Positions 6,794 to 51,362 of a stretch of DNA of 64,000 nt are shown one piece after another; position 1 is the first letter of the stretch; each line of letters starts with the position of its first letter. The notes beneath the pieces were generated by a model that saw nothing but the letters and a program-made list of their open reading frames with translations, was not told the origin of the DNA and searched no databases. The stretch lies in the sequence record PP400781, one strand, 5' to 3'. This stretch comes from Escherichia phage FL20. Both the position numbers and the translations under genes were made by a program.

Positions 6794-6997
6794 TTATTTC
6801 CTCTCTGAAAATTCTTTCATCAAGCTGTCGATCTTTGCTCTGTGTTCTGGTGTGTTTGTCATCTCTGCTAATTTGCTCAGAGATTCACTGGTGATCCGGT
6901 TGGATTCTTCCAGTGTTTCAACGACAATTGGCACAATCTTTTTATTGTTGTACAGAAATGCAATATAACCGCCTTCTGGATATTCTTTCATAATCAA
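6794..6997 (-). CDS. Hypothetical small protein
   Basis: 67-aa ORF; start overlaps the gp52 stop. Confidence 0.4.
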   Translation of the reverse strand: MIMKEYPEGGYIAFLYNNKKIVPIVVETLEESNRITSESLSKLAEMTNTPEHRAKIDSLMKEFSERK

Positions 6998-8340
6998 CCC
7001 TTCTTAAGTTCTTTAAGATCTTTCTTATATTCCTTCATTGCGGTCGTCTTTGTCCAATACTCATATTCACTATGATGTTTATCGGCATCTTTGACCAGTC
7101 GATCATACTCTTCTTGAGTAACGCTATACAATGGCATAGAAACTAGCTTATCGGCGTATGGACGCAGTTTTTCATGTCCATTGATGGATTGCATTACCTC
7201 GGCCTTTTTCTTTCCCTGTAGCTCGATTTCGCCCTTAATTACGCGATCGATAAATTCGGCTTTAGCCATTGCATAATTGTATGCTTCCAGCGTTTCCGCT
7301 TGCATCAATTCAATGCGTTTATCGACATACACTAATCGGATTTCGACGAATCGACGGATCAGATCGCTCGCTTTCTCGAATACTTCTACTAAACCACGTT
7401 CATTAACCACTACGATATTCTGGGCTACTAACTGCGTTAGTTTAAAATCCTTCATGATTTGCTCATGTCGAGCGGATTCATCTTCGCTTTTGAAATAATC
7501 GCGTTTCAGTGTTACTTCAAATCTGAATCCATCCTTAGAGCAACGGTCATTATATGAGACAATCAGATCTTTTTCTTCCAGTGCATCCAGTACCGCTACA
7601 TATTCTTCACGGTCGAACTTATAAGGAACTTCTGATATTGTCAGTTTAGTCTTGCCGTTTAGTTCATATGTACCCTCAAGAATCACACCATCGCGATCAT
7701 CTCGCGGGATAACTTTACCCGTGAATTTCGGGAATTGAACATTAGGTTCTTTATCCAGTTTTCCGGCAAGTGCTAGCTCTGTGCATTCAATGAGGCTTTC
7801 CAGTGAATGCGGTAAAATGTCAGTTTTATACCCTGAAGCAATACCACTAATACCATTAGCCAATACCATTGGCACAACTGGCAAGTAGAACGCTGGCGGG
7901 ATGTGTTCCAGATCTTCGTGCTTAGGTGCGCAATTCATATCTTTATAGATTTTAAAGAAGTTTTCATGCACACGAGCAAAGATATAACGTGCCGCTCCTG
8001 CTTTCTGGACTAAACGAGATCCGAAGTTACCTTGACCGTCAAGCAGTGGAGTATTATTGCTCCATGTATTCGCCATGAGTGATCCGGCTTCTACGGCATT
8101 AGTTTCGCCGTGGTGATACCCCAATTCAGCAACACCAGATCCAATATCTGCCATCTTACGGAATTTCTTACGGTCGCCTTTACTCTTTTGCAAAGCACAT
8201 TCCATAACAAAGCGTTGCACTGGTTTAAGCCCATCCACTAATTGAGGAATCCCGCGTTCCTCGGCAGAATAGATCGCATATTCCTTAGCTTCATTATGTA
8301 CAATGCTTTCAAGGCTGCGGTAAGTAACTGATTTATTCAT
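6994..8340 (-). CDS. 52: DNA topoisomerase II medium subunit gp52 (GyrA-like)
   Basis: GLKPVQRF, DGQGNFGS, ARYIFAR, YLPVVP motifs collinear with T4 gp52; ATG at 8338-8340 with GAGGTGA RBS (track start 8355 is GTG). Confidence 0.9.
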   Translation of the reverse strand: MNKSVTYRSLESIVHNEAKEYAIYSAEERGIPQLVDGLKPVQRFVMECALQKSKGDRKKFRKMADIGSGVAELGYHHGETNAVEAGSLMANTWSNNTPLLDGQGNFGSRLVQKAGAARYIFARVHENFFKIYKDMNCAPKHEDLEHIPPAFYLPVVPMVLANGISGIASGYKTDILPHSLESLIECTELALAGKLDKEPNVQFPKFTGKVIPRDDRDGVILEGTYELNGKTKLTISEVPYKFDREEYVAVLDALEEKDLIVSYNDRCSKDGFRFEVTLKRDYFKSEDESARHEQIMKDFKLTQLVAQNIVVVNERGLVEVFEKASDLIRRFVEIRLVYVDKRIELMQAETLEAYNYAMAKAEFIDRVIKGEIELQGKKKAEVMQSINGHEKLRPYADKLVSMPLYSVTQEEYDRLVKDADKHHSEYEYWTKTTAMKEYKKDLKELKKG

Positions 8341-8347
8341 CTTCACC

Positions 8348-8710
8348 TCATACACGCTTACAAATCACATTCTTTACTTTATCAGATTTATCAGCCCAAT
8401 CCAATAGCCATTTTAACGGAAGGATTGACACAATAAACGGGGCAGCAATCAAAGCAAACATGATACACCTGATAATCAGGAAAACGCAAGTGACAAAACT
8501 AGCGATAGTGATCCCGACAAAACAAAATACCATAGAAAACAGAGTAATGATATAGAAAGGCCAGAATACCCACTCCCGCATCTTAACGCCTTTGTATTCT
8601 CTGAATTGCTTAAAATCTACAAACAACTCTCGGATAGACGCGTACAGGACCGAAAAATCATCTTTCATTGCTCTGAATGAGCAATCTTCTATTTTAGAAT
8701 GACCTAGCAT
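8348..8710 (-). CDS. Hypothetical membrane protein
   Basis: 120-aa ORF with two or three hydrophobic helices (WVFWPFYIITLFSMVFCFVGITIASFV...). Confidence 0.45.
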   Translation of the reverse strand: MLGHSKIEDCSFRAMKDDFSVLYASIRELFVDFKQFREYKGVKMREWVFWPFYIITLFSMVFCFVGITIASFVTCVFLIIRCIMFALIAAPFIVSILPLKWLLDWADKSDKVKNVICKRV

Positions 8711-8712
8711 TA

Positions 8713-9006
8713 TTAACCGCCTTTAACCATTGATACAGGAATTGTTTTCTGATTTGTGTATAAGTGGCCTACTTCAATTTTTTCTTGAATCACCACGACG
8801 TTACAATATCCACTGTCTTTAAGTTTTCTGATAATGACTCGCTTTTGTTCGTCGGTGATAGGATTGACTGTTCTCACCAATTCACCGCAAATAATAGCAC
8901 CATCTTTACAATTACCAGTAACTTTCATGCTACGACCGTGAACAACAACCACGTCACCGTAAATCACATTTTCGTCGTCGTATTTGGTAATAACCGTGAC
9001 CGTCAT
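8713..9006 (-). CDS. Hypothetical protein
   Basis: 97-aa ORF. Confidence 0.4.
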   Translation of the reverse strand: MTVTVITKYDDENVIYGDVVVVHGRSMKVTGNCKDGAIICGELVRTVNPITDEQKRVIIRKLKDSGYCNVVVIQEKIEVGHLYTNQKTIPVSMVKGG

Positions 9007-9051
9007 AATGTATTCCCTCTAAGAAAGGCCGCGCAAAGCGGCCTATGTTGA

Positions 9052-9384
9052 TTATTGTTCTACAGTATAACCGTTGTTTTCAAGCCATGCAATAACAATC
9101 TTTTCGCCAATTTCATCGAGCATTTCATCAGCGCCATATTCTTTAATGAAAGTCGATGGATCATTATTGCTTACTACGTGCTGGATCACAACATGTTCAG
9201 GAATTGCGTCTAGTAGTTCGCTATGATCATACTCATTAACGATATCTTCAACACTAACATTATTAACCAAATCAACATCATCCATAGTCACAGTAACGCG
9301 ACCGGACGGACGCAATGAATATTGGCTACTTTCAACTTCAACATGTGCACTTTCGCAAGTAACTTTCATATCAACCATAATCAA
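9052..9384 (-). CDS. Hypothetical acidic protein
   Basis: 110 aa, strongly Asp/Glu-rich. Confidence 0.45.
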   Translation of the reverse strand: MIMVDMKVTCESAHVEVESSQYSLRPSGRVTVTMDDVDLVNNVSVEDIVNEYDHSELLDAIPEHVVIQHVVSNNDPSTFIKEYGADEMLDEIGEKIVIAWLENNGYTVEQ

Positions 9385-9392: not shown

Positions 9393-10385
9393 TTAGTAAT
9401 GGCTAAAACCTTCGGTCACATCTTCAACCACATAGTAACGATGACAGCGCATTTTGGCATTTGCATAATCTTTCGGGATACTTACAACGTGACGCGGATC
9501 AACTTTGCATTTAATGATTCGGCCTCGTCCACCGCCATAGTGCGGAATATAGTGTTTCGCTGCAACGTGGAGGCCATTAGAGCAAGTGCGATCATCATCT
9601 GGGTCCACGTCTTTACGCTTCATTTTAACCGTGCGACCTGGGCTATTATCAAACGTATGCGTAAAGAAATCTTTATAATCAACATCAACACGTTTCCATG
9701 CATAGAAACAACCATCTTCCACGATCTCAATGTCGTTGTGCTCTAAGAAGTCAAATAGACGATCTACGGCCTTACGGCTAGGGTTTTTCTTGCACTTCTC
9801 AAAGAAGTTAAGATAGTGCGTATATGGCTTATTCTCTTTAATCGACTCCACAACTCGACGAGTCAGATTATTATCAAGAACAATATTATGATAATACACA
9901 ATACCATTTTCGATACGGAAAGCGCCGTGATAATATACTTCAACCGCTTTCTTAATGTCAATCAGCGTAATAGCTTTGATGAAATCATTATGTTTAATCG
10001 CTTCCAGTGCTTCCTTAAAGTTAACATGTGATGGATCAGCAGTATAAACAATGTCACCACATGTAATAGTAATAAACTTAGTTGAGGCTATGGCTACGAT
10101 TTTTGAGGAAGTAGTTACGGGCTTTTTTGCGCGTTCACCGCCTTTTCCTTTACTGGTTTTACGGCGTGCTTTACGTTTTTCTAGTGCCTTGCGACCTTCC
10201 GCTACTGCGTCTTTCTGAATCAGTAATACACGGGAGGCAGTGCGACGAGATACACCAAATGCTGCCGCAAGTGCTTCGCGGGTAGTAAACTTACCTTCGC
10301 CCCACTGTTTAGCCAGTTTGATTTGTTTCGCAGAATCCAGACATTGAACGTTACGGTCAGAGACGGTGATTTTTGCTTTAGTCAT
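9393..10385 (-). CDS. rIIB: rIIB membrane-associated lysis-inhibition protein
   Basis: Collinear with T4 rIIB (SRLFDFL, DGYFYAWK, TFDNSPG, CSRGLHV, VKVHPRDVVSIP, YEVVEDVTE equivalents); ATG at 10383-10385 preferred because the first ATG abuts the RBS. Confidence 0.85.
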   Translation of the reverse strand: MTKAKITVSDRNVQCLDSAKQIKLAKQWGEGKFTTREALAAAFGVSRRTASRVLLIQKDAVAEGRKALEKRKARRKTSKGKGGERAKKPVTTSSKIVAIASTKFITITCGDIVYTADPSHVNFKEALEAIKHNDFIKAITLIDIKKAVEVYYHGAFRIENGIVYYHNIVLDNNLTRRVVESIKENKPYTHYLNFFEKCKKNPSRKAVDRLFDFLEHNDIEIVEDGCFYAWKRVDVDYKDFFTHTFDNSPGRTVKMKRKDVDPDDDRTCSNGLHVAAKHYIPHYGGGRGRIIKCKVDPRHVVSIPKDYANAKMRCHRYYVVEDVTEGFSHY

Positions 10386-10447
10386 AGTATTCATTCCTCT
10401 ATTAGTTGGGCGACTATTGCCGCCCGATTCACATCATTATACCAGAA

Positions 10448-20085: not shown

Positions 20086-20604
20086 TTAGTAGCCGCGTTC
20101 TTGACGGGCGAAGTTTTCAGCATTTTTCAGATAGTACAGAATAAAGAGTTCTTTAGCGTCAATACCCAGCGGGATCATCTTTGACAGAATGAAGTGGATA
20201 GCGTCCACAAATTCAAATTTCACTTCAAGCTGATCTTCCGGTGACAGTTCAGAGAATTTACGCGCTCGCGCTTCCCCGTGGTTCTTTTTCCACATTTTCC
20301 AGATTGCACTTGCATCTTTACCGTTGGACATTCCACCCAGCGATGTGTAAAGCTCTCGTGTTTCGTCTGCGATAGCGTCATCCATCCGTTGCATCCAATC
20401 CAGCATTTCACCGCAAGTCTCTAGCTTCGTTGGATTTGGGACCCAATCAAATTTTTCGGATAGTGCAACCTGCAAACCAGTTTGCATTTCGAGCATCACC
20501 TGAAACGGATCTTTACCTTCTGCAATCGCGTGATGATATGCGGCGATAGCCGCGTTAATATCTTTTTCGTTAACCAGACCAGCACAAGAATTAAATTCTG
20601 ACAT
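20086..20604 (-). CDS. 56: dCTP pyrophosphatase gp56
   Basis: 172 aa; blocks DPFQVMLEMQ, KLETCGE, SPEDQLEVKFEFVDAIHFIL, FILYYLKNAENFARQERGY match T4 gp56; GAGGTGA RBS. Confidence 0.85.
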   Translation of the reverse strand: MSEFNSCAGLVNEKDINAAIAAYHHAIAEGKDPFQVMLEMQTGLQVALSEKFDWVPNPTKLETCGEMLDWMQRMDDAIADETRELYTSLGGMSNGKDASAIWKMWKKNHGEARARKFSELSPEDQLEVKFEFVDAIHFILSKMIPLGIDAKELFILYYLKNAENFARQERGY

Positions 20605-20618
20605 ATTCACCTCATTAA

Positions 20619-21647: not shown

Positions 21648-21651
21648 AATA

Positions 21652-22206
21652 TCACCTCTCTTTATATCGTGATGTTCTGGTCTGACTCTTCCATATTCTT
21701 CTTATGGTTATCGTGTGCACTCCGTATATTATAGCAAGTTCTTTTACAGACGCAACACCCTGTTTAGACCTGATCTCTTCTACTTGATGGTCAGTTAACT
21801 TTGCGTTTCCGTGTGTTTCTCCATAGTTTTTGTTCAATCCTTCTTCTTTAGCGTGTATAAGATTTTCTCTTTGTGTTGTCCACTCAAGGCCATACAGATC
21901 AAAATCCTTTTTATCACCAAATTTGTGATTTACTACAGGGTAGTTGTTTGGATTTGGTATAAATGCTTCTGCTAATGCCCTATGAATATAAACGCCGACG
22001 GTCTTTGGCTTGCCCGACTTTGTTCTGTTGGCGTAATCTCTTATATTACAAGAGACATAACCTTTTGTTATTTTAGTTGATCTGACCTTGCCAGTGGCTT
22101 TATTTCTTAGTTTACCATAAGAACTAATTTCATATTCTGGATACGATACGCCCATATAAACAAGGTCTTTCCATTCTTCTGGATGTTCATCACAATACCG
22201 TTTCAT
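21652..22206 (-). mobile_element. HNH homing endonuclease gene (free-standing)
   Basis: 184 aa; EISSYGKLRN (N-terminal homing-endonuclease-type motif), HNH core VNHKFGDKKDFDLYGLEWTTQRENL, C-terminal HTH; inserted between 61 and the 61.x-type small genes. Confidence 0.7.
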
Positions 22207-22221
22207 GATGTTATTAACCTC

Positions 22222-22425: not shown

Positions 22426-22745
22426 TTAAGCGCCACCGACAACAGAATGAGAACTACACCAACATACATTGTGATCTCGGATAACTTTTCTGTTTTTGTT
22501 TTGTGTCCAGATAATCCGAAAACAACAACACCGATAATAGCGGACAGCAAGCCAACGATAAACATGATGATACTAAGCACCGTCTTTCTCCTTTTTGCGT
22601 TTTTCTTTACCCGCTACACTAGGTCCACGATTGGTAATAGATCCGCTCGTTTCCCCTGCTGCGATCTTCTCAGGATTGCCGCCAGCATCGCCAGCGGTCA
22701 TATCTTCTTTGAGTTTATTTTCTTCAACAAACTGTTTAAATCCAA

Positions 22746-23123
22746 TCATAGAATAATCTCTTTCAGTAAGTCAACAATCTGGTCTTTCGTCAGTTTATCC
22801 TGATTCTCTACAATCTTGATAACACAAGCATTAACATCTTTTCGAGTCACGCGGGAGATCGTTTTAATACGATGAAACGGTTCGTAGAAATATACTGCTT
22901 CATTATAGAGCGCAGCAATTTTTCGACGCATTTGATCTTTATCTGACAAGAAAACAAGTGCTGTTTTATGACCTTCGACACCCGCCACGTTATATAGTTC
23001 AGCAACACCCCAGCGACCTTCCGGTTCAATCATTCCGGCGTGTTTACCGTCGATAAAAATAAGAATATCTCCGTTGAATGCGGTTTTGAATGCTACATCT
23101 TCCGGCGTAATCATATTTTTCAT
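22746..23123 (-). CDS. Hypothetical protein
   Basis: 125-aa ORF. Confidence 0.45.
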   Translation of the reverse strand: MKNMITPEDVAFKTAFNGDILIFIDGKHAGMIEPEGRWGVAELYNVAGVEGHKTALVFLSDKDQMRRKIAALYNEAVYFYEPFHRIKTISRVTRKDVNACVIKIVENQDKLTKDQIVDLLKEIIL

Positions 23124-23153
23124 AATATAGTCTCCTTAGAGTTTCATTATAGA

Positions 23154-23789
23154 TCAAGCGAACGTAGAAAGCAAATGTTTTGTTTCTTTCAGTTGTCGTT
23201 CAAGATCTTTGCGTTTCTCTTTAAGTTGCATTTTAGCATTATTTCGCTCTCTTGTAACCTCTTTATCAATGCTCTTATTCCAATTATCAATATCAGAATA
23301 AGTTGGCATACCCAATTCTAAACCTAATGCGGTTGGATACAGGGTAACAGTCCATAAACCGCCAATCTTCTTAAACAGGTCTGGGTGTAATGTACTACCT
23401 ACATCTTCCGGTGTCAACTCTTTTTCTTCTTTCAGTGGTGGGGTCTCGTCATATGGTTCCAGTGCATTTACTTTAATATCAGATACCTCATCAAAGAATC
23501 CGCGTACATCCGCAGGAAATACGCAAGCAATTTCCCAACCGTGATCACGCAGAGAAGTAATATTTTTCACCCCCCCACCATGTGTGATGATTGATGTGAC
23601 ATTGCCATCAAGGTCCACCGAATTTACGAGAAATGGCTTATCGTCTGTCAGATCATTATAAAACTGTGCTTCGGCTGTAGTCATCTCCAGAAACAGATCT
23701 CGGATCGGACGACCATCAGGTGCGTTACCTTCCTTGAGAGTATAAAAACGACTTACGATCCATTTTGGCGGTAAAGCATTAGCAATCAT
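23154..23789 (-). CDS. Hypothetical protein (61.x region)
   Basis: 211-aa ORF immediately upstream of 41; Lys/Glu-rich C-terminal coiled coil. Confidence 0.45.
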   Translation of the reverse strand: MIANALPPKWIVSRFYTLKEGNAPDGRPIRDLFLEMTTAEAQFYNDLTDDKPFLVNSVDLDGNVTSIITHGGGVKNITSLRDHGWEIACVFPADVRGFFDEVSDIKVNALEPYDETPPLKEEKELTPEDVGSTLHPDLFKKIGGLWTVTLYPTALGLELGMPTYSDIDNWNKSIDKEVTRERNNAKMQLKEKRKDLERQLKETKHLLSTFA

Positions 23790-23839: not shown

Positions 23840-25252
23840 TTAGAAAGTCATGTTATTTGCTAGCTCGTCGAGTTTTTCTCGTTTCTCGGCTTGCTGTGCG
23901 CTTTGTGGTTTAACTTGTGCATTCTCCTGATCTGCGATCTGGTTTGGTACTTCATACCAACGCTGATTTCCTTTTTTCACACCAACGTTAAACCGTGAAT
24001 AGTAGTTCTTATCACCGTAACGAGATTTAATCTGCTTCATGAGTTGGACGCCCATTTTAGCCAGGTCTTCGGTTTCGATAACACCCAACATAAAATCTGC
24101 TGTAGCCGGAAGACCTGCTGATTCAGCGGTATCACTCATGTTAAGGTCGGAAGCATCCCAACCCGCGCGGGTAGTCTGTGCTGCAGTCCAACCAACAACA
24201 TCCCACTTAACAAAAAATCCTCGCAGTTCTTCCGCAATCGCCTTAACTAGTGTGTAACTATTTTCAGAGTATACACGCAAGCGAGACGATGCGCAAATCC
24301 CCAGATAGTCAACAATCACAACATCAGGTTTAAACTGTTTCTTGAGTCGCAATTCATTCATTAACGCTTCAAAGTGATTGGAGTTTGCGCCACCAGTCGG
24401 ATACTGCTTGATCATCAATTTTCCAACCGGACGATCTCCGATCTTCTTATTCTTAACACGCTTCATGCGTGCGGAATATTCCGCAAAAGAAACATTACCA
24501 TTATCCAATTCATCTAATGTAATGTCAAGCAAGTTTGCGTCGATACGTTTGGCTACGACATGCTCTGCCATCTCCATTGAGATATACAATACATCATAAC
24601 CACATTCCATATAATCCGCAGCAAGAGAACATAATCCAAGCGATTTACCAACATTTACACCAGCCAACAACACATTTAGCGTTTTTCTTTCCGCACCTCC
24701 TTTCGTGATTTTATTCAACATCGGCAGCTTAAACGGGATCTTATTCGCCTTAGTCTGATATAGCAAGAATCGTTTTTCAAAGTCATTAAACCAGTCATGA
24801 CCTACATCAGAATCAAACGTAATGGATAGTGCTTCCTGCATGATCTCAGGAATAGCACCCTCACTCGGCAATTTCTTATTCTGTTTCTCTTTTGGTAGTT
24901 GTGCGTTCGCCTGAATCTCTAGCGCCCGTGACATTGCATTATACATGGCACGGTCACGAATAAATTTTTCGGTTTCCTTCATTAACCAATCAAGGTCTTC
25001 CGGTGTATTCTCCAGCGAATCGAGAAGAGTTTTAGCCCCTTCATATGTTGTCTGATTGCCTCTCTCCTTGTCTAAAGCAATCTGTAATGCAGTTGGCGTA
25101 GGAATATTGGAATATTCGTCTACGTGCTTTTTAATCAGCTTATAAATCAGTTTTTCTTCGTCTTCGGTGAAGTAGTCCGCTTTAAGGTGAGGCCATACAT
25201 TCGTAAAGAATGCGCCATTGTAAATCAACTGTGAAAAGATGGTTTTAATCAT
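23840..25252 (-). CDS. 41: Replicative DNA helicase gp41 (DnaB-like)
   Basis: 470 aa; Walker A LLAGVNVGKSLGLCSLAADY; blocks YISMEMAE, KQYPTGGA, VIVDYLGIC, ESAGLPATADFMLGVIETE, IKSRYGDKN collinear with T4 gp41. Confidence 0.9.
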   Translation of the reverse strand: MIKTIFSQLIYNGAFFTNVWPHLKADYFTEDEEKLIYKLIKKHVDEYSNIPTPTALQIALDKERGNQTTYEGAKTLLDSLENTPEDLDWLMKETEKFIRDRAMYNAMSRALEIQANAQLPKEKQNKKLPSEGAIPEIMQEALSITFDSDVGHDWFNDFEKRFLLYQTKANKIPFKLPMLNKITKGGAERKTLNVLLAGVNVGKSLGLCSLAADYMECGYDVLYISMEMAEHVVAKRIDANLLDITLDELDNGNVSFAEYSARMKRVKNKKIGDRPVGKLMIKQYPTGGANSNHFEALMNELRLKKQFKPDVVIVDYLGICASSRLRVYSENSYTLVKAIAEELRGFFVKWDVVGWTAAQTTRAGWDASDLNMSDTAESAGLPATADFMLGVIETEDLAKMGVQLMKQIKSRYGDKNYYSRFNVGVKKGNQRWYEVPNQIADQENAQVKPQSAQQAEKREKLDELANNMTF

Positions 25253-25566
25253 ACATAGCCCCCAACTACACGCATAACAAAGGTCTTGAGTTTATACCAG
25301 AAAGTTTCTTTTTTCAACTTTTCTTCTGCTTCTTTGATCTGCGCGGTTAACGCCTTAATGACGTGTGGATATACCACATCACGATCTGACGGCGTGGAGT
25401 AGTCGACCACAATACCTTTAGTGTCTGGATCGTATTCAACATTATGAATATAGACAATATGATGTTCTCCCTCTTCATCAACAATTATCAGTTCCTGGAT
25501 AACTGTCTTCATTGCTTCTTGAATCAAGCTGTGTGCTTCTTCTAAACTTGTTGGTTTCTTATCCAT
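25249..25566 (-). CDS. Hypothetical protein at gene 40 position
   Basis: 105 aa; between 41 and uvsX as T4 gene 40; hydrophobic C-terminus; identity to gp40 not verified. Confidence 0.35.
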   Translation of the reverse strand: MDKKPTSLEEAHSLIQEAMKTVIQELIIVDEEGEHHIVYIHNVEYDPDTKGIVVDYSTPSDRDVVYPHVIKALTAQIKEAEEKLKKETFWYKLKTFVMRVVGGYV

Positions 25567-25621
25567 AATATAATCCTCTCTAGATATGAAAAAGGGGCAC
25601 GTAGCCCCTTTACTACCATTG

Positions 25622-26692
25622 TTATGCTAACATATCTTCGATTTCTTTGTCAACTGCTTCGTCGCTGATCACTTGCCCCAGCTTATAATGATCGTTGATT
25701 GCTTCGTTAAACTTATCGTTTGTCAGAAGCGGTTTCCAGAACTCAATGCTATTGGTTTCTTTAGCACGGAACTTGCGTTCTTCGGTTTCCATCTCTCCGG
25801 TCTCAGTATTCAGGATTGAACGAGAATACCAGCCGTTTGACGGTTTCACTACCCAACCTAACTCTACAGCCAACTCCAGCAAACCGGAATAAGGATCGAT
25901 GCCACCGCTAAATGTTACGCTAATCGGGAACTTAGATTTTTCTTTAACGGTTCGTGATTTTTCCGCATTCAGGATAAAATCATAACCAGTAATTTCGGTT
26001 CCTTCTTTCTGCTGACGACGACCAATAATGAAAACTTCATTGGCTGAATACATCGCGCCCGTACCGCCGGACATAACGGTCTTACTAAACATTTCTTGTG
26101 TTTCGTAAGTGTGGTTAATAGCGATGCACGGGATATCATTCATAGTCAGATATGGCGTCACCATACGGAACAAGCCTTTAAGTGCTTTAGCTCGCGTCAT
26201 ATCCTGTGCAGATTTCTCATTAATCGCGTCTTCAACTTCTTTTTTACTTGCTAAGTTACCGATTGAGTCAATAAAGATGATCACTTTATCTTCACGGGTA
26301 ATTTGCTCAAGCTGGTTCATGATTTCAAATTTAAGTTCTTCGATGTTCTTGATTGGAACATGCACCACGCGATCAGGGTCTACACCCATAGACTCCAGAT
26401 ATGCGGAAGTAATACCAAACTCAGAATCAAAGAACAAGCACGCCGCATCAGGATTCTGTTTCATGTATGCACTAACGCAAGTTAATCCCATGTTTGATTT
26501 AAAGTGCTTAGACGGACCAGCAAAGAAAATCAGACCAGATTGAAAGCCTTTTTTAAGATCACCTGAAAACGCAATATTCAGCATCGGGATCTTAGTGCGA
26601 GTATTTGTTTTTTCGTTAAAGAAGCTGGATTTAGACAGTACCGCAGTAGTTTTCAGGGTAGAGTTCTTTTTCAGTTTTTCCAGTACAGACAT
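25622..26692 (-). CDS. uvsX: UvsX recombinase (RecA-like)
   Basis: 356 aa; Walker A GPSKHFKSN; blocks CLFFDSEFGIT, DSIGNLASKKEVEDAINEK, DMTRAKALKGLFRMVTPY, IPCIAINHTYETQEMFSKTVMSGGTG, GGIDPYSGLLELAVELG match T4 UvsX (C-terminal tail shorter). Confidence 0.9.
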   Translation of the reverse strand: MSVLEKLKKNSTLKTTAVLSKSSFFNEKTNTRTKIPMLNIAFSGDLKKGFQSGLIFFAGPSKHFKSNMGLTCVSAYMKQNPDAACLFFDSEFGITSAYLESMGVDPDRVVHVPIKNIEELKFEIMNQLEQITREDKVIIFIDSIGNLASKKEVEDAINEKSAQDMTRAKALKGLFRMVTPYLTMNDIPCIAINHTYETQEMFSKTVMSGGTGAMYSANEVFIIGRRQQKEGTEITGYDFILNAEKSRTVKEKSKFPISVTFSGGIDPYSGLLELAVELGWVVKPSNGWYSRSILNTETGEMETEERKFRAKETNSIEFWKPLLTNDKFNEAINDHYKLGQVISDEAVDKEIEDMLA

Positions 26693-26703
26693 TATTAATA
26701 CCT

Positions 26704-26931
26704 CTATTCAGTTAATCCGTAATACTTTAATTGCTTCATTGTTATTCGATCTTTGTAGTGCTCTTGAATTAACTTTTTCATCGCATCAACATCGATCGTC
26801 ACAAATACTTCGTTGCTGTGATTTCCGTGAACTTTCTTGAAATGCTCTATGCCTTCCTCACGTCCACGTTTAATCTTTTCAATGTCTCTCATAATATATT
26901 TCTCACATTGGCGGGTATCGTCACCCAACAC
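26704..26931 (-). CDS. Hypothetical small soluble protein (not imm-like)
   Basis: 75 aa, charged, no TM segments; the only ORF between uvsX and 43. Confidence 0.4.
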   Translation of the reverse strand: MLGDDTRQCEKYIMRDIEKIKRGREEGIEHFKKVHGNHSNEVFVTIDVDAMKKLIQEHYKDRITMKQLKYYGLTE

Positions 26932-26953
26932 CCGCCATTATACACACTTTATC

Positions 26954-29632
26954 TTAAATGTCAAACAGGTCAGTCAGAGAAGCAACTTTTTCATATTGCA
27001 GCTTTGCAGCCGTGGTAATGTTCTCCAGTGGTTTGACGAAAGTCTTATTAAACAACAAAGGCCAGTCTAACCACTTTAACACCTCTGATTCAATTTCTGG
27101 AGGAATACGAGTACCGGACAACCAACCAAAACAGATTTCTCCAAACGGATTTCGGTCTTTCAGCGGTACAATCATAACCTTCTCGCCCTCACGAATCGGA
27201 TCTAGTCCGAATTTTCGAGCATTACGATTATAACACAATACACTCTTAACCGCATACGGACAACCCTTAATCGGATACCCGTTTGAATCGCTGTATTTCT
27301 GTAGGTTGTTTGCAGATGATACCGCAGCAACATCAAGATAGTCAAGTTTTCTAAATTCTTGCTCAAAAATACCGTAGTATTCCTGCAATGACTCTTCACC
27401 TTCCTGCAACATACGGCGAATACATTCTTTCAGTGATTTCTGACATGCTTTAGGGGTGGAGCTACGTTGCGTTTCCAAGCCCATGATTTTTAGCTTAGGT
27501 TCAGCAAAGCGCGTTCCTTCCATATCCCAAACATTAAGAGCATAACGCTTTTTACCAGTCCAGAATCCACCGATACCAGCAGATTTCAACGGGGGACCAG
27601 CAATTGCCTCACGGTCCATAAACATCAAGTGCTCATAGTTGTTCATGTACTCGCATAACTCGCGATATCCCTTGTCGATAATAGGTTCCATTCGATGTTT
27701 ACCGAAATTATCAAGGAAGTCAACAAGTTTTTCGGTATCGTCGAAACGATCTTCCCCGCCAACCTTATCAACAACATTGTTAACCAGCACATAAACGGAG
27801 TCAGTATCACAATAACGAACATATGCAAAATCGGTTGTTCCGCAAAGCTCGTTTAAGTATTCGTTAATCTTACGCTCAATCCATTGAATTGCAAGCTGAC
27901 CGAACAGTGTGATCGCACTAGCGTTACGGAGATCATAAAAACGGAATTTAGGATTCCCCAACGCACCATAAAGGGAGTTGATCAAAACTTTTCGAGAAAG
28001 CTGGTTTGTATTGCACAAGATCGACTCGTCTTTACATTCTTCCAGCAATTTCTCTAAGGCATCTTTACTTAATTCAGAAAGCATCGATTTAAACGCTTCA
28101 TCAAAGTCGTGACGCACTTCAACGCTATAGCTAATGGTTCCCCCATAAACATGATTTTCATCGTGTAGAATCGCTTTACAGAGTTCAGCATTGCGATCAC
28201 ATGCCAACATCATATTTTTGTACTGCTTGCGCTGATCAAATACCTTTTTAATCTCAATCGGTACGATACCGTGAATATCTTTTCTATACATCCATCCGTT
28301 AGGCGAGCAAGAATACTCATCACTCGGACGTGGTGCAGTTTTATTGATATACTCGTGCATCGGTGCAGCATCAAAAGACCCAGCGATTGTTTCAGGCGAA
28401 ATATTAACCTGTCGAATAATAGATGGATACAGACTTGTTAAGTCAAAGCTCATCATCCAACGGTAAGCATTTGGCACAGGTTCTTTTACGAATGCGCCCG
28501 GATAAGTCTGCTTAGGCTGTATCTTATTTTCCGGTACTACTTTACCCTCAGCTTTCAGAGATCCGAAGATAATAGCATCCCATACTTTCATCGGGTTATA
28601 AACATGGTTAAATTTAATCTTTGCATAGAAACATAGGCTATACACCAGATCAATAAAGCCACGCTTTTTATCAATCGCCAGCACACGGTCAACGTCGCCG
28701 ATGTTATAATCGATGTAAAGTTGATGATTGTCATCACGCAATTTCTTTAACGGACCATCATAATCAACCTTACCGATTCCTGTCTCATATTCAGCAACAT
28801 AATCTAACGCATATGTTGGTTGAGTCGTAAAGCTAAATTTCTTGTACAGGTCAATATAATCAAGGCTTTCGATCCCCATGATCGTAAATGCTTCACGCTC
28901 GTTGCCAAAATCATCCTGTGAGATTCTGGATTTAATCTTACCGCACGGGCTTAGACGGTTAGCGGTTCTACTTCCGAACTTATTACTGATACGTTTAATG
29001 ATATATGGAATATCGAATGTTTCTGTGTTCCAGCCAGTGAAACCAACGGGTCGGTTTTCCTCAAAGAATCGGATGTATTCTAACAGCAATTCATCTTCTG
29101 TGTCATAGACGTTATAAACAACGCGCTCTACAATATCAGGTCGAAGAATAGACTTGCTTGCTTCCCAGATTTCACCGTTTTTTCCTTTCAAGTCAAATAC
29201 AAAGAAACGATCATGTACGGAATCATAATGCGTAATTGCATCGATAGGATATTTCGCTTCTTCTGGTTTAGGAAATTCCGGTGCAGTGACCTCGATATCA
29301 ACCCATGCTACACGGATTTTATTTCGGTCATATCGAATCTCGCCTTTATACGTATCAGACAGATAGGAGATGATAAAATCATCCATCCCTAGTGCCTCTT
29401 GCCCCATTTCTCCCATCTTTTTACGCCATTTGTTGGCCTCGTTCATAGATGGGAATTTTTTAGCAATGCAAGGCTTGCCGTAGATATCTTTATAATTCGT
29501 AACCATACCAGGCGCGGCATGATGAAATAAAGTTGGTGTATATTCAACGTAACGCTCTTGTTCTTGTCCAGCATCATCAATATAACGCTCGTAGATCTTA
29601 TCACCTACTCGCTCACATGACAGAAAATACAT
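26954..29632 (-). CDS. 43: DNA polymerase gp43 (family B)
   Basis: 892 aa from ATG 29630-29632 (GGAG RBS); exo motifs (DIE, YNIGDVD), pol motifs SFDLTSLYPSIIRQ, KVLINSLYGALG, YCDTDSVY, KKRYALNVWDMEG collinear with T4 gp43. Confidence 0.95.
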   Translation of the reverse strand: MYFLSCERVGDKIYERYIDDAGQEQERYVEYTPTLFHHAAPGMVTNYKDIYGKPCIAKKFPSMNEANKWRKKMGEMGQEALGMDDFIISYLSDTYKGEIRYDRNKIRVAWVDIEVTAPEFPKPEEAKYPIDAITHYDSVHDRFFVFDLKGKNGEIWEASKSILRPDIVERVVYNVYDTEDELLLEYIRFFEENRPVGFTGWNTETFDIPYIIKRISNKFGSRTANRLSPCGKIKSRISQDDFGNEREAFTIMGIESLDYIDLYKKFSFTTQPTYALDYVAEYETGIGKVDYDGPLKKLRDDNHQLYIDYNIGDVDRVLAIDKKRGFIDLVYSLCFYAKIKFNHVYNPMKVWDAIIFGSLKAEGKVVPENKIQPKQTYPGAFVKEPVPNAYRWMMSFDLTSLYPSIIRQVNISPETIAGSFDAAPMHEYINKTAPRPSDEYSCSPNGWMYRKDIHGIVPIEIKKVFDQRKQYKNMMLACDRNAELCKAILHDENHVYGGTISYSVEVRHDFDEAFKSMLSELSKDALEKLLEECKDESILCNTNQLSRKVLINSLYGALGNPKFRFYDLRNASAITLFGQLAIQWIERKINEYLNELCGTTDFAYVRYCDTDSVYVLVNNVVDKVGGEDRFDDTEKLVDFLDNFGKHRMEPIIDKGYRELCEYMNNYEHLMFMDREAIAGPPLKSAGIGGFWTGKKRYALNVWDMEGTRFAEPKLKIMGLETQRSSTPKACQKSLKECIRRMLQEGEESLQEYYGIFEQEFRKLDYLDVAAVSSANNLQKYSDSNGYPIKGCPYAVKSVLCYNRNARKFGLDPIREGEKVMIVPLKDRNPFGEICFGWLSGTRIPPEIESEVLKWLDWPLLFNKTFVKPLENITTAAKLQYEKVASLTDLFDI

Positions 29633-29664
29633 AATATAAACTCCTTCACTTACGAAAGACACTC

Positions 29665-29693
29665 ATTATAGGGGAATCGACTTAGTTTGTCAA
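29665..29693 (-). promoter_or_regulatory. Sigma70-type promoter upstream of gene 43
   Basis: TTGACA-aactaagtcgattcccc-TATAAT about 30 nt upstream of the 43 start. Confidence 0.5.
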
Positions 29694-29714
29694 TACCCCT
29701 ATCCCATCAGTATC

Positions 29715-30077
29715 TTATCGCCCGATCTGATATTTCTCGATCAGCGTCCACTCTTCTTTCTGTTTGAAAGACAGTACACGGAAATTATTAACTTCGGTAG
29801 TTTCAAAATCACTATCAATCAGGGTACACAGATTCCACTGCGCCAGAAGTTTTGCAATGTTATTACGGCGTAATTCATCTTCCCACGTCATTTTAACACT
29901 ACGACCATCTAATTTCAACAACTCCTTGAAATGAACGATGTAATAGCGCCCTTTCTTCTGGAGAATATGACAAGACTGATACAGCGTCTTGTCTCGATTG
30001 TTGGCAATGCCGCAGCGGGTTAAAGTTTCCTTAATTTTAAGGAAGTTTTCAGGACTAATCAAATTAATTTCAATCAT
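29715..30077 (-). CDS. regA: Translational repressor RegA
   Basis: 120 aa; near-identical blocks LTRCGIANNRDKTLYQSCHILQKKGRYYIVHFKE and NFRVLSFKQK as in T4 RegA. Confidence 0.9.
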   Translation of the reverse strand: MIEINLISPENFLKIKETLTRCGIANNRDKTLYQSCHILQKKGRYYIVHFKELLKLDGRSVKMTWEDELRRNNIAKLLAQWNLCTLIDSDFETTEVNNFRVLSFKQKEEWTLIEKYQIGR

Positions 30078-36510: not shown

Positions 36511-37536
36511 CTAACTTTTTGCGCTATTTACCTCGGCTAAAAGTTCATCAGAAATACGCTTGACCGCCGCAAGTTCTTCCGGTTCTAGGTTTTGTTCTTC
36601 CAGATATTCATATACCATCTGAATAGTGCTTTTAACTTCAATAACACCTGTTTCCTGTGATGCGCTACTCTCCAGTTTATGGACCACTTTTAGCTTGTGT
36701 ACAACGGCCTCTAACGCGCTTTCTAACTTAGTTAACCCATTATCAGCAACCGTTGCAATAAGACGCACACTAAGCCCCTTAAAGCGTTCTACATCGATTT
36801 TATCATCTGACGGGTAAGTGATACGCACATGATAAGTTTTGTCATTCTGGATAAACTCTTTTTTGTGTGTATCGGTATCGAATACCCAAAACCCACGCGG
36901 ATCGTTTTCGTCACCCGCCGTTAGTGTGTATGGTGTACCGATATACGTTACATTACCGCCATCGCTGATAGTATGAAAATGACCGGAAAACACTTCACGG
37001 TATTTCTTGAGGAAGTCCGCGCTATAACCTTCGGATTTTAGCCCTTTATAGAAATAGTAACCGGACAATTCCCAATGGCCTACACAATATTCGCTGAATG
37101 AGTTTTGAATAAACTCTAAAATCTCTGATTTATTGTCATCACAAAACCACGGGAACAGATCAAATGATACACCATCAAAGGTAACTGTTTCCGGTTTATC
37201 GATAACCTTAATGCAATCATACTGGCTTAACACTTCACGCGGTGCGTTAGGCTGGATCTTGTTTCGTTTAAACATATCATGGTTCCCGACCGTGATATAA
37301 CAAGTAATTCCAGCCTCTTCCAGTAATGGGATGACCTTAGTACGGTTAAATTTCATGGTTTCATGGGTAATTGCTTTTCGGCAATCAAACCAATCCCCTG
37401 TTTGAATCCATGTCTTAATATTATGCTCTTTGGAGTATTCAACCGCCTTCTTGATGGTATCAAGAATATACTCATGCACCCACGGATCATCGCCACCGAT
37501 ACCAGTATGCAGATCACCTAAAAGCAAAATTTTCAT
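36511..37536 (-). CDS. 47: Recombination endonuclease subunit gp47 (Mre11/SbcD-like)
   Basis: 341 aa; phosphoesterase motifs GDLH, GDWFD, GNHD, GHWE, GHFH; collinear with T4 gp47. Confidence 0.9.
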   Translation of the reverse strand: MKILLLGDLHTGIGGDDPWVHEYILDTIKKAVEYSKEHNIKTWIQTGDWFDCRKAITHETMKFNRTKVIPLLEEAGITCYITVGNHDMFKRNKIQPNAPREVLSQYDCIKVIDKPETVTFDGVSFDLFPWFCDDNKSEILEFIQNSFSEYCVGHWELSGYYFYKGLKSEGYSADFLKKYREVFSGHFHTISDGGNVTYIGTPYTLTAGDENDPRGFWVFDTDTHKKEFIQNDKTYHVRITYPSDDKIDVERFKGLSVRLIATVADNGLTKLESALEAVVHKLKVVHKLESSASQETGVIEVKSTIQMVYEYLEEQNLEPEELAAVKRISDELLAEVNSAKS

Positions 37537-37626
37537 AGTCTCTTCCTCTCTTCGTTTTCGATGCTCTCACTATATCACAGAAAAATAAAAAGGGAAACCC
37601 CTTTCAGAGTCTCCCTTATAAAGCCA

Positions 37627-37914
37627 TTACAGCATACTTAATACCGTTTGCCGTGTACTAATCCACATAGCAGAAAGCAGTTCTGGCGTGTGTGGCTGTT
37701 TGTAGATATCACGTAACTTTCCGATAGCGTAGATATACGCATCACGGTTATCATCGATGATAGCTTGTTCAGCCCACCGCTTAAGGCGTGCAATCTCTCG
37801 CGAGTTCTTACGCAAGATCTTTTCCGCTTTCTTAGCGGCTTTAGCCTCTAGTTCTGCTTGTACTTTGTCTACTTCATTCACTGCAATCTGGTCATGCTGT
37901 TCATTGCAAGTCAT
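37627..37914 (-). CDS. Hypothetical protein
   Basis: 95-aa ORF between 55 and 47. Confidence 0.4.
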   Translation of the reverse strand: MTCNEQHDQIAVNEVDKVQAELEAKAAKKAEKILRKNSREIARLKRWAEQAIIDDNRDAYIYAIGKLRDIYKQPHTPELLSAMWISTRQTVLSML

Positions 37915-37915
37915 A

Positions 37916-38149
37916 TTATTTTACCTCTGGGATATAATCAATTATTAAAGAAAATTCATCTTCTGATACATTATAGCTATGTGAGATTGTACCCGTAAAG
38001 ACCTCAAGATCCGGTGATTTGATATTGCACGGATCGATAATCACCGGAACGCCGCAATCTCTCAAAAATAATTTGGCGAAATACGGCACAAGGTCAGTTT
38101 CAAACTCTGCTTCTTCCAGCAAACGGGAAATGTTAATTTTCAATCTCAT
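37916..38149 (-). CDS. Hypothetical small protein
   Basis: 77-aa ORF overlapping the 3' end of 55. Confidence 0.4.
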
Positions 38150-38666
38150 AAAATTGGTCCAAGCTAGGCAATTCCTCGGTCAATACATCTTCAACCTTTG
38201 GCGCTTTCGGTTTATTGACCGATTCCTCGTAGTTGTTGATTTTATCGTAAATGTCCTGTATGAATGCCTCATCAGCAATCTGGCACATATCAGCGTCGCG
38301 TTCGTCATATACATGATGCACAAAATATTTGTATTTTGCGGCTGTCGCTGTTCTCTCTTTTTTAATGCGCTGTACAAAAGCATTAAAGCACGCTTGCGTG
38401 ATGTAAGCATGAGGATTTTTATACTTTGTCTCGTCAAAATTAATCAAACCCTTGACCGCCGCTTCGATTCCGTCGTCGATCATTTCTTCGCGCCATGTTT
38501 GACTATAACCAGAAAAGTTAAAACGACGTGATAGATTTTTAGAGATTTGCATAATTGCTAGGCCGATTTGATCGCTCATTGGAACTTGCCGACCTTCTGC
38601 TGCAATTTGTTGTTTCCAACGGCAAATTTCTTCGTAAAGCTCTTTATTGTTTACATAATCAGACAC
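38133..38666 (-). CDS. 55: Late-transcription sigma factor gp55
   Basis: 177 aa; [23 protein letters not shown], near-identical block [37 protein letters not shown] as in T4 gp55; start appears to be GTG. Confidence 0.85.
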
Positions 38667-40486: not shown

Positions 40487-40643
40487 ACTTAATGATACTT
40501 ACTTTACCAGATCCGTGACAATGAGCGCAACACCCATCACCACGCAATCCTGTTCCGTTACAGTGTTTACACTTCTTCAACGGTAAAGCCATTATAGCAA
40601 ATAAAGCAATAATGAACACCGAAACTAAATTCTCAATAATCAT
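40487..40643 (-). CDS. Micro-protein with TM helix and DnaJ-type double CxxCxGxG zinc finger (52 aa)
   Basis: Not in the ORF track. Translation MIIENLVSVFIIALFAIMALPLKKCKHCNGTGLRGDGCCAHCHGSGKVSIIK read from the minus strand. Confidence 0.4.
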
Positions 40644-40902
40644 AAATCGCCCTCAGTTCTTTATAGCCTCCAATGTGCTCGTTGTCAATGAATATCTGGG
40701 GGTATACAAACCGGAGGCTCTTTGAGTTTAGCCTCCCCGCCAGTTCTTCAATCATATCACGGTCGGGAATAATGTCAACCCCGACCTGCTTGAATACTGG
40801 TTTAAGTGTATACGGAATACCCAGATCATCCAGTAGCTTCATTGCACTAATACAACCATAACAATGATAAGCCTCTTTCGGTATACCGTATATCTCGATC
40901 AT
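40633..40902 (-). CDS. nrdH: Glutaredoxin-like protein (NrdH-like)
   Basis: 89 aa; CYGC redox motif near N-terminus and YPQIFIDNEHIGGYKEL glutaredoxin signature; located next to nrdG as T4 nrdH. Confidence 0.55.
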   Translation of the reverse strand: MIEIYGIPKEAYHCYGCISAMKLLDDLGIPYTLKPVFKQVGVDIIPDRDMIEELAGRLNSKSLRFVYPQIFIDNEHIGGYKELRAIYDY

Positions 40903-41399
40903 TTCTCAGCCTTTAATCTTTCTAGTTCTTCTTCCAGTTCCTTGATCCGTTGGTCACGTTCAAAGTCACGCTGTAACTTAGTGGCGAATACTCGTTTAAA
41001 CTGATTGTAATCATCGATTTTAAACACTTCTTCTTCGCCATAGCGACGCACAGAAACTTCGTAGTTATTGAAGAATTGTTGCATCATTGCTTCGGATGAT
41101 AGCTCTGCTGATACCACTTTAAAATATTGATCTTCTGTAGGCGAAAACCAATTACAAGCATAAAGATAAACCTTTTCATTGTCTGGACACTGGTAAGCCT
41201 TACCATCGATTTCAATCACAGAAACATACTCAGGTATACTAGATGAATCAATAGCTAAGACTTTAAACGCACGGTCCCCGATAAACTCGGAGATCACACG
41301 ATTCGCATCACTGGTTGCAAATGCTTTACGCGCTTGTTCGTTTTTCCACTGATAGGTCATACCAACAACAAACATATTACCAACCTCGCTCTTTACCAA
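40899..41399 (-). CDS. WEVGK-module family protein (1 module plus coiled-coil tail)
   Basis: 166 aa; GMTYQWKNEQARKAF ... FKVLAIDS ... IEIDGKAY module and C-terminal RIKELEEELERLKAEK; paralog of seven neighbouring genes. Confidence 0.5.
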   Translation of the reverse strand: MVKSEVGNMFVVGMTYQWKNEQARKAFATSDANRVISEFIGDRAFKVLAIDSSSIPEYVSVIEIDGKAYQCPDNEKVYLYACNWFSPTEDQYFKVVSAELSSEAMMQQFFNNYEVSVRRYGEEEVFKIDDYNQFKRVFATKLQRDFERDQRIKELEEELERLKAEK

Positions 41400-50549: not shown

Positions 50550-51362
50550 TCAATCTACGTTAGTTACATAAACTTCTTGCGTATCAGAAGACTTACCACC
50601 TGAACGATCTAGGCAATAGGTCTTATTCAACAGGACGCAGTTTAAATCATTCCGCTTGATAAAGTCAAGGAGATGATCATTTACCTTTCCCTTATGATGT
50701 GTGACATTACTGATACCAAACTGAAAACCACGCGCCATAATCGATTCTACCCACTGATAGAATTTAATCTCTTCCTCGTCACTCCAGAACTTATTGTATT
50801 CCGCAGAAGTGATAAGGTACGGCGGGTCCAAATAAACGAAATCACCTGGCAAGATCTCGATCTCGTCATAACGACCAGACGTAAAACTGATTCGACCGTC
50901 TTTGTTTTCTTCCTTAAAATTCAGGACGCGCTCTACCGCGTTTTCGTTAAAAGTCCGTCGGCCAAAATTAGCATTAAATTCTCCCTTCCTGTTATGGCGG
51001 TTAATGTTGCTAAAACTGTGCTGAATCAGAACAAACAGAGATAGCGGATCTGGATTCTCATTATACTTCTTACGGAATGTCATGTAAGCGTCTTTATCAT
51101 CACGAGACAAACCATTTTCGGCAATAATACGCTTGATCGTAGAAACCGGATCAGGACACTCGTCAATCGCTTTGTACGCGTCAATTAAGCGGTGATCATA
51201 GTCATTAGCCAGCACATCCCCTTCGACGTACAGAGACACGCTCAAGCCGCCACAGAAGGCATCAACAAAGCGGTTATAGTGCTTAGGGAAATACTTACTA
51301 ACACCCGGCAATAACTTTTCCTTATTGCCAGTATAGGGAATTAAACCTAATGCTTTCTTCAT
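50550..51362 (-). CDS. dam: DNA adenine methyltransferase Dam (N6-A, GATC)
   Basis: 270 aa; YTGNK, NRFVDAFCGGLSVSL (SAM binding), DPPYLIT catalytic motif, ADYNKFWS-like block; collinear with T4 Dam. Confidence 0.85.
   Translation of the reverse strand: MKKALGLIPYTGNKEKLLPGVSKYFPKHYNRFVDAFCGGLSVSLYVEGDVLANDYDHRLIDAYKAIDECPDPVSTIKRIIAENGLSRDDKDAYMTFRKKYNENPDPLSLFVLIQHSFSNINRHNRKGEFNANFGRRTFNENAVERVLNFKEENKDGRISFTSGRYDEIEILPGDFVYLDPPYLITSAEYNKFWSDEEEIKFYQWVESIMARGFQFGISNVTHHKGKVNDHLLDFIKRNDLNCVLLNKTYCLDRSGGKSSDTQEVYVTNVD

Follow-up and report, generated by a model that had tools for sequence, protein, structure and literature searches.

Gene 56 without gene 42: an RB49-type phage genome segment and the missing T-even hydroxymethylcytosine network

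The 64,000-nucleotide stretch of Escherichia phage FL20 DNA analyzed here (sequence record PP400781; "the window" in what follows) encodes a homologue of the T4 gp56 dCTPase/dUTPase and a Dam methyltransferase, but the intervals in which T4 carries the gp42 dCMP hydroxymethylase gene and the two glucosyltransferase genes, a-gt and b-gt, are filled differently. Do the genes of hydroxymethylcytosine (hmC) synthesis lie elsewhere in the genome, has the phage adopted a different modification chemistry, or is its cytosine simply not modified? An earlier note on this DNA, made from its sequence, had left the choice between relocation and a different or absent chemistry standing. It is very probable, in our judgment, that the window comes from an RB49-type phage that replicates with ordinary cytosine and has retained gp56, with the hmC network missing. 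This combination is not new: missing hmC genes together with a retained gp56 are a published, lineage-wide trait of the RB49 group, and the occurrence of gene 56 without gene 42 has been discussed explicitly (PMC8056088, PMC12115623).

By its sequence, the window belongs to the genome of a Krischvirus, one of the RB49/phi1/JSE-type "pseudo-T-even" phages. A 5-kb stretch (25000-30000) matches 58 phage records, all of them RB49-type Krischvirus coliphages, at 95-99% nucleotide identity (kaaroe 98.7%, RB49 98.3%, JSE 98.2%, SAP and TB34 98.2%). The window as a whole is 97.0% identical to SAP across 97% of its length, and the annotated gene order of JSE is collinear with it on both sides of rIIA. 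Its G+C content is ~40% (0.38-0.42 along its length) and ARAGORN finds no tRNA genes in it; the genus is described as devoid of tRNA genes, with a G+C content of about 40.5% (PMC7552041; Petrov et al. 2010, Table 2, PMC2993671). Differences between the window and RB49, phi1, JSE, kaaroe, SAP and TB34 are confined to the level of alleles; gene 43 is unsplit in the window and split in JSE.

Anchor genes and the T4 genes missing between them

Thirty-six proteins taken from the T4 RefSeq record were compared by tblastn with the window and with the complete genome of its relative SAP (165,332 bp). The genes that delimit the relevant intervals are readily recognized, all on the minus strand of the window. 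The uvsX recombinase gene (25622..26692) is matched by T4 UvsX over 25628-26677 (63% identity, 3e-151) and is collinear with JSE, and the gene 43 DNA polymerase (26954..29662) by T4 gp43 over 26963-29629 (55%, E=0). Gene 47, encoding the Mre11/SbcD-like nuclease subunit (36511..37536), aligns over 36601-37536 (56%, 7e-117) and gene 55, encoding the late sigma factor (38133..38666), over 38145-38660 (61%, 9e-69). Gene 52 (6994..8355) and rIIB (9393..10394) are matched over 7018-8319 (50%) and 9405-10352 (44%), respectively.

What lies between these anchors is not what T4 places there. The T4 uvsX-43 interval contains segA, b-gt, 42, imm and imm.1, whereas that of the window contains a single small ORF, and the absence of bgt, 42 and imm that the earlier note had reported for this interval is borne out by tblastn with the T4 proteins and by Pfam. 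Between genes 47 and 55, T4 has 47.1, a-gt, mobB and a-gt.2 to a-gt.5. The window has only two small ORFs there and no agt, as previously noted, and tblastn and Pfam now allow both to be named. The first (37627..37914, minus strand) is a homologue of a-gt.4 (T4 a-gt.4, 1e-12; Pfam DUF2654, PF10849, 1.3e-22) and is not a glucosyltransferase; the second (37916..38149, minus strand) is a DUF5491-like homologue of a-gt.5 (T4 a-gt.5, 6e-8; phrog_1169; the Pfam match falls under the family cut-off). In T4 also, a-gt.4 and a-gt.5 are small proteins adjoining gene 55. The T4 genes 47.1, a-gt, mobB, a-gt.2 and a-gt.3 are replaced by a 90-nt gap that harbors a terminator-like hairpin followed by a T-run (37588..37605, minus strand; three overlapping calls of the terminator scan vs 0.7 expected).

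The third interval, from gene 52 to rIIB, holds 52.1, ac, stp, ndd and denB in T4. Its counterpart in the window, 8348..9384, is taken up by three ORFans on the minus strand (8348..8710, 8713..9006 and 9052..9384) that match only function-unassigned PHROGs, have no Pfam match and are not matched by T4 DenB or Ndd in tblastn; the earlier statement that denB and ndd are not recognizable there thus stands.

The same result is obtained when the window is searched in its entirety. For T4 gp42, b-gt, a-gt, imm, imm.1, denB, ndd, alc, arn and ipI the best tblastn E value in the window is ~0.1; gp42 itself does no better than E=1.1, and the two glucosyltransferases yield nothing below E=0.2 in either the window or the SAP genome. 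A modification enzyme hidden among the window's ORFs was also considered and rejected: 30 ORFs, including every uncharacterized one of at least 140 aa, were scanned with Pfam, and no glycosyltransferase or thymidylate-synthase-like domain was found among them. (The domains that did come up are those of a DEAD-like helicase, an RlaP-type nucleotidyltransferase, a macro domain, SLT, RegB and Endo VII.)

The uvsX-43 interval

The uvsX-43 gap is occupied by a compact unit on the minus strand. Reading on from gene 43, there is a predicted sigma-70-type early promoter (26937..26964; TTGACA-16 nt-TATAAT, 12 of 12 consensus matches) that overlaps the gene 43 stop, its TTGACA falling in the last codons of that gene. 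Directly after it comes a stem-loop (26910..26936; GGCGGGTGTTG...ACCCGCC, 11-bp stem, RNA fold -21.5 kcal/mol), followed by a purine-rich ribosome site (Shine-Dalgarno) and the ATG, at 26892, of a 62-aa ORFan (26704..26892). These are the elements of the PeSL (Arbiol et al. 2010; Comeau et al. 2014): a near-perfect TTGACA-N16/17-TATAAT promoter, a stem-loop formed by a G-run and a C-run, a Shine-Dalgarno sequence and a small ORFan. In its sequence, the window copy does not differ in structure from that cassette, and the promoter/stem-loop/ORFan unit at uvsX-43 is a PeSL cassette as Arbiol et al. (2010) define it.

The window contains 32 near-consensus promoters, all on the coding (minus) strand, and the stem-loop downstream of gene 43 is the strongest fold associated with any of them. 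The combination of promoter and GGCGGG occurs once in the window and not at all in 100 shuffles. A second perfect promoter lies upstream of gene 43 (29693..29665, minus strand) and marks the upstream PeSL copy; PeSLs on both borders of gene 43 have already been described for RB49 and phi1 (Arbiol et al. 2010). Promoter and terminator activity, and mini-circle recombination, have been established experimentally for other PeSLs of RB49 and phi1, and by analogy with that work the window PeSL would be expected to have a regulatory function. The gap between gene 47 and the a-gt.4 homologue was also considered as a PeSL site; this was rejected, the gap having only its terminator-like hairpin, without a consensus promoter.

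The ORF itself can be read in two ways. Starting from a GTG, it extends over 26704..26931 and encodes 75 aa, the length given in the earlier note, but this GTG lies inside the stem-loop. The start is probably the ATG at 26892, since a 62-aa reading better fits the anatomy of promoter, stem-loop and ribosome site, and since JSE and SAP are annotated with 62 aa. (In a large protein database the ORF is represented by four near-identical clusters, for which gene callers give 73-75 aa.) The description of the product as soluble, on the other hand, holds up: the 62-aa protein is strongly charged, predicted to be helical and without a hydrophobic segment. It is present in 58 of 58 Krischvirus records at 95-99% identity, and relatives at ~50% identity occur in unrelated Salmonella and Klebsiella phages and in Dhakavirus. 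The protein has no Pfam match, and the only PHROG that it matches, phrog_12120 (1.7e-41), carries no functional annotation; a single-sequence AlphaFold model (pLDDT 63.5, pTM 0.34) is too weak for fold comparison. Because it is charged and has no hydrophobic stretch, the 62-aa protein is not an analogue of Imm, and a modification enzyme would have to be larger. In T4 the uvsX-43 gap is a plastic slot, taken up by segA, b-gt, 42 and imm; in the window a single PeSL cassette occupies it.

Absence or relocation, and the state of the cytosine

About 61% of a ~164-kb genome lies beyond the window, which amounts to some 39% of it; the genomes of T4-like phages are mosaics, and dam, which adjoins gene 56 in T4, sits elsewhere in the window; genes 42, a-gt and b-gt might accordingly be sought beyond the 64 kb. 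That they are there is, however, scarcely conceivable. With all of the SAP genome as target, gp42, b-gt and a-gt of T4 give only noise, and alc, denB, ndd, arn, ipI and imm likewise have no tblastn match. The sole match of gp42 (E=0.006) lies inside the paralogous td. This 410-aa Krischvirus thymidylate synthase, with its ~125-aa insertion, was weighed as a disguised dCMP hydroxymethylase and rejected: it has a full ThyA profile (Pfam, 1.2e-84) and carries the dUMP-specifying Asn of "GLPFNVASY", where gp42 has Asp in "GFRND". SAP has no second gene of the thymidylate synthase family. The search of the rest of the genome that the earlier note had proposed thus turned up cd, when run on this relative, but no gene 42 and no glucosyltransferase gene. 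Neither gene type is annotated in SAP or TB34, and the absence of these genes from RB49-type genomes is a matter of published record (PMC4041780, PMC8056088, PMC12115623, PMC2993671). For close relatives, 97-98% identical to the window, relocation of the hmC genes is excluded on the basis of their genome sequences; in these phages the genes are absent.

The comparison with T4 shows the T-even hmC network to be missing from the window at the level of recognizable sequence: gp42 and both glucosyltransferases, DenB, Alc and Ndd, and Arn and IPI. Of the T4 network (42, 56, 1, a-gt, b-gt, alc, denA, denB, arn, ipI) the window has gp56 in common, along with the flanking replication genes, and the genomes of its relatives keep gene 1, denA, cd, td and frd, all five of which are present in SAP. 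This is a coherent gene content. Along with gp42 and the glucosyltransferases, the T4 proteins by which cytosine DNA would be harmed or silenced (DenB, Alc and Ndd) are gone, as are Arn and IPI, the counter-defenses that accompany hmC, and enzymes of nucleotide supply stay. Krischvirus either never had the T-even hydroxymethylcytosine network or lost the whole of it long ago.

The literature is consistent with this reading. In Table 4 of Petrov et al. (2010; PMC2993671), 42, denB and alc are confined to T-even, JS98, RB69, CC31, Acinetobacter and Aeromonas 44RR-type phages and fall outside the RB49 type, while 56 and denA fall inside it. Yaung et al. (2014) noted that RB49 is without hydroxymethylase and b-gt, and showed that HpaII and NheI digest RB49 DNA (PMC4041780). 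Nikulin and Zimin (2021) discussed an apparent paradox of the RB49 and RB43 groups, in which DenA and the dCTPase-dUTPase are retained and DNA methyltransferases occur, but no base-modification enzymes (PMC8056088), and a 2025 paper ties the lack of the hmC gene, denB and ndd in Krischvirus to generalized transduction (PMC12115623). HPLC-MS of TB34 DNA revealed canonical nucleosides only (PMC13390438). By extension from these relatives, the cytosine of the window phage would be unmodified, and of the chemistries that the earlier note had entertained, an absent one is the one that the digestion of RB49 DNA and the nucleosides of TB34 favor. Krischvirus relatives share with the window the 62-aa ORF at uvsX-43, the a-gt.4/a-gt.5 pair between 47 and 55 and the PeSLs beside gene 43, as well as gp56 and Dam. 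Phages of the RB43/RB16 type (Pseudotevenvirus) are likewise without 42, gt genes and denB, keep 56 and denA, and perform generalized transduction (PMC8056088, PMC12115623, PMC2993671), but they constitute another genus with little DNA identity, and they have ndd and a reported C5-cytosine methylase (PMC8056088, PMC12115623).

One report stands apart. In a 2026 paper all cytosines of Krischvirus SAP are said to be replaced by hmC, glucosyl-hmC and gentiobiosyl-hmC, with no pathway found (PMC13390438). HPLC-MS of SAP DNA gave about one third 5-hmdC and two thirds alpha-gentiobiosyl-mdC, and SAP was sensitive to the type IV enzyme BrxU, yet TB34, 99.96% identical to SAP, was unmodified (all PMC13390438). 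These data, whose authors did not find the genes responsible, and the retention of gp56, gene 1 and denA as parts of the T4 network, are what would speak for a route to hmC and gentiobiosyl-hmC that is independent of gp42 and of the known glucosyltransferases, in which gp56, gene 1 and denA would work with undiscovered enzymes and which might be switchable between near-identical isolates. Such a route, which the gene-poor loci would then conceal, is very unlikely. The modification profile of SAP is identical to that of seven T6-like Tequatrovirus phages in the same collection (PMC13390438). The RB49 digests with HpaII and NheI also speak against it, as does the generalized transduction of cytosine DNA by RB49 (PMC8056088, PMC12115623) and the restriction of the thymidylate synthase family to td in SAP.

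A genetic cause for the difference between SAP and TB34 was sought by aligning the two genomes, which brought out only differences resembling artifacts. They comprise 64 small differing sites and one indel of ~83 bp. At forty of the sites TB34 lacks one base of a homopolymer, and these deletions break up many TB34 genes; at 14 of the 32 CCSGG sites, TB34 has CCWGG; eight are one-base insertions in TB34, all in GGTCTA/TAGACC; the other two are small changes of other kinds. SAP was sequenced by Illumina, and the window sides with SAP at every differing site that it covers. From their sequence context, the differences look like errors of assembly or motif-linked base-calling in TB34 and not like the gain of a pathway; a mix-up of stocks or samples is the likelier origin of the hmC reported for SAP.

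With ordinary cytosine as the preferred reading, any protection of the DNA would come from methylation, by Dam and by two further methyltransferase candidates elsewhere in the genome, to which other anti-restriction genes may add. The Dam homologue that the earlier note had listed beside gp56 is confirmed. It is a predicted Dam-type N6-adenine DNA methyltransferase (50550..51362, minus strand), matched by T4 Dam over 50559-51353 (46% identity, full length, 4e-64) and by Pfam MethyltransfD12 (PF02086, 2.3e-30). GATC occurs 360 times in the window against 264±14 expected; this over-representation of ~6.9 standard deviations implies that the phage does not avoid the site. The further candidates lie outside the window. 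One, at 162388..163227 of SAP, has MTS, Eco57I and N6_Mtase domains; the other, at 40621..41337 of SAP, is a weak C5-methyltransferase-like ORF (E=0.033, below the Pfam threshold).

That site-specific methylation, by Dam at GATC and by one or two other enzymes, is the main protection of these phages (a proposal that overlaps with the ordinary-cytosine reading) we consider quite possible, though short of probable. In addition to the genes just named, and to the GATC count, a DNA-cytosine methyltransferase in the RB49 group has been noted by Nikulin and Zimin (2021; PMC8056088), and the association of the TB34 assembly discrepancies with CCSGG and TAGACC gives a hint that these motifs may be methylated in Krischvirus DNA. 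On the other side, HPLC-MS of TB34 shows no detectable modified nucleoside (PMC13390438), although rare site-specific methylation could escape it; the C5-methyltransferase assignment is sub-threshold; and a few methylated motifs protect against their cognate enzymes only.

The state of the cytosine has practical consequences. RB49-type phages serve in phage-therapy cocktails. Their DNA, being unmodified, is open to attack by classical restriction-modification systems and Cas9 and is spared by type IV enzymes, and it enables these phages to perform generalized transduction. Published accounts of these properties date from 1997-2010, and papers of 2014, 2021 and 2025 returned to them.

Gene 56 and its alleles

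Gene 56 (20086..20604, minus strand), whose presence the earlier note had correctly recorded, encodes an all-alpha NTP pyrophosphatase homologous to the T4 dCTPase/dUTPase (49-50% identity to T4 gp56, 1e-50, with the tblastn match over 20089-20604; phrog_173; Pfam dUTPase_2, 24.7 bits vs a cut-off of 22.9). A search of solved structures yields no relative of gp56 at E<=1. Fifty-seven positions do not vary between T4 gp56 and the products of three Krischvirus alleles. They include DE.REL, E...E..D..HF and LY.LKN..N..R...GY, and with them the acidic motifs that characterize all-alpha NTP pyrophosphatases; motifs of catalytic type are thus constant across alleles with only 43-70% identity. All genomes examined have an intact ORF.

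In T4, active gp56 without gp42 blocks the synthesis of cytosine DNA, which requires that gene 56 be inactivated (PMC8056088). Petrov et al. (2010) group gene 56 as quasi-core "auxiliary metabolism", and their Table 4 places it in all phages listed save giant Aeromonas and Vibrio phages (PMC2993671). Gene 56 has been kept because it belongs to a quasi-core set of nucleotide metabolism genes (56, cd, td, frd, gene 1 and nrd) that lies outside the hmC module. In Krischvirus, gp56 may act mainly as dUTPase/dUDPase, keeping uracil out of DNA and supplying dUMP, and any residual dCTPase activity could combine with Cd to convert dCMP to dUMP, feeding thymidylate synthase. Demand for thymidylate would come from a phage of 40% G+C growing in a host of 51% G+C. 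Since an active gp56 prevents cytosine DNA from being made in T4 when gp42 is absent, we infer that the dCTPase activity of Krischvirus gp56 is weak, modest or balanced.

Gene 56 diverges within the genus to an extent that its surroundings do not. The gp56 protein of the window is 70% identical to that of SAP, 58% to that of JSE, 56% to that of T2 and 50% to that of T4; its DNA is 78% identical to SAP and gives no blastn alignment to JSE, whereas the flanks are 93-99% identical. Codon differences between the window and JSE, 59 of them synonymous and 73 non-synonymous, are numerous in both classes, which indicates that the variants are old functional alleles that have been swapped by recombination, and not products of decay. 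Moreover, the Krischvirus alleles (58-70%) are as distant from one another as from T2 (56%), and a clean partition of residues between gp42-plus and gp42-minus phages is therefore not to be expected. It is plausible that endonuclease-driven co-conversion caused this allelic divergence.

Homing endonuclease genes near genes 56 and 61 are polymorphic in the group: in JSE such a gene overlaps the 3' end of 56, and in SAP one separates 56 from 61. In the window, gene 56 has no neighbor of this kind; an HNH gene is found at 21652..22206 instead. In T4, the neighbor of gene 56 is SegF.

Cytosine modification and the SAP/TB34 comparison

The Krischvirus genomes SAP (OZ034687), reported to carry hmC-type cytosines, and TB34 (OX001802), reported to be unmodified, form a pair described as differently modified, yet the differences between them include nothing that would explain hmC in SAP genetically. 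These consist only of 40 homopolymer deletions, all of them in TB34, CCSGG-to-CCWGG changes in TB34 at 14 of 32 sites, insertions in TB34 at 8 of 51 GGTCTA/TAGACC sites, and an indel of ~83 bp near SAP 39.7 kb. The pattern of homopolymer, CCSGG and GGTCTA/TAGACC changes points to artefacts of assembly or base-calling as the source of the differences, with the possible corollary that CCSGG and TAGACC are methylated as motifs in Krischvirus DNA.

Thymidylate synthase is encoded in SAP beyond the window (td; 10691-11923 of the SAP stretch L008). The 410-residue protein is a complete ThyA in which ~125 residues are inserted between two conserved segments, 'WR' and 'DQ..I'; it keeps the dUMP-specific Asn (the position of Asp in the dCMP hydroxymethylase gp42).

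Two candidate DNA methyltransferases other than Dam are encoded in SAP, both beyond the window. One, of 279 residues, lies between genes 8 and 9 (L010:12388-13227) and has MTS, Eco57I and N6_Mtase domains; the other is a 238-residue ORF (L007:40621-41337) with a sub-threshold match to C5-methylase (E=0.033). In the window as a whole GATC is over-represented, with 360 sites observed and 264+/-14 expected. (The expectation comes from 100 dinucleotide-preserving shuffles, none of which reached 360.) This excess accords with the phage methylating its own DNA through Dam, not with avoidance of the site.

Divergence of gene 56

The gene for the dCTPase/dUTPase homologue gp56 constitutes a hyper-divergent island (window 20079-20581) within flanks, compared across 18000-23500, that are 93-99% identical to those of relatives. 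The gp56 protein is 58% identical to that of JSE (another Krischvirus) and 70% identical to that of SAP; no blastn alignment is obtained between gene 56 of the window and that of JSE. Synonymous and non-synonymous differences between alleles are both numerous. Homing-endonuclease genes beside 56 and 61 vary in their presence among genomes, which suggests that gene 56 alleles have been replaced through endonuclease-driven co-conversion. An HNH/NUMOD4 homing-endonuclease gene on the minus strand at 21652-22206 separates gene 61 from the 61.1-like ORFs; at the corresponding position an HNH gene is present in SAP, and JSE is without one.

The uvsX-43 ORF and early promoters

The GTG start that underlies a 75-residue reading of the ORF between uvsX and gene 43 is located inside the stem-loop of the promoter-early stem-loop (PeSL) cassette, at window 26904-26931. 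Automated gene calls in a large protein database likewise choose this GTG, yielding 73-75 residues; the JSE and SAP annotations place the start at the ATG at 26892, yielding 62 residues, and this fits the arrangement of promoter, stem-loop and Shine-Dalgarno sequence. All 32 near-consensus sigma-70 promoters of the whole window (at least 11 of 12 matches) are on the minus strand, which is the one that codes for the early genes. Perfect matches (12/12) number nine, and gene 43 has one such promoter on either side (29693..29665 and 26964..26937).

Other divergent segments and ORFs

Two further segments, 42501-43000 and 47001-47500, are only 82% and 77% identical to SAP, respectively, the remainder of the window being ~97% identical; both lie within ORFs of unassigned function. 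In the interval that separates gene 55 from the 55.2 homologue, where T4 has the small 55.1 alone, the window carries a 489-residue ORF (38707-40176, minus strand) with an N-terminal match to DEAD/DEAH-box helicases (PF00270, 3.4e-6; phrog_2467).
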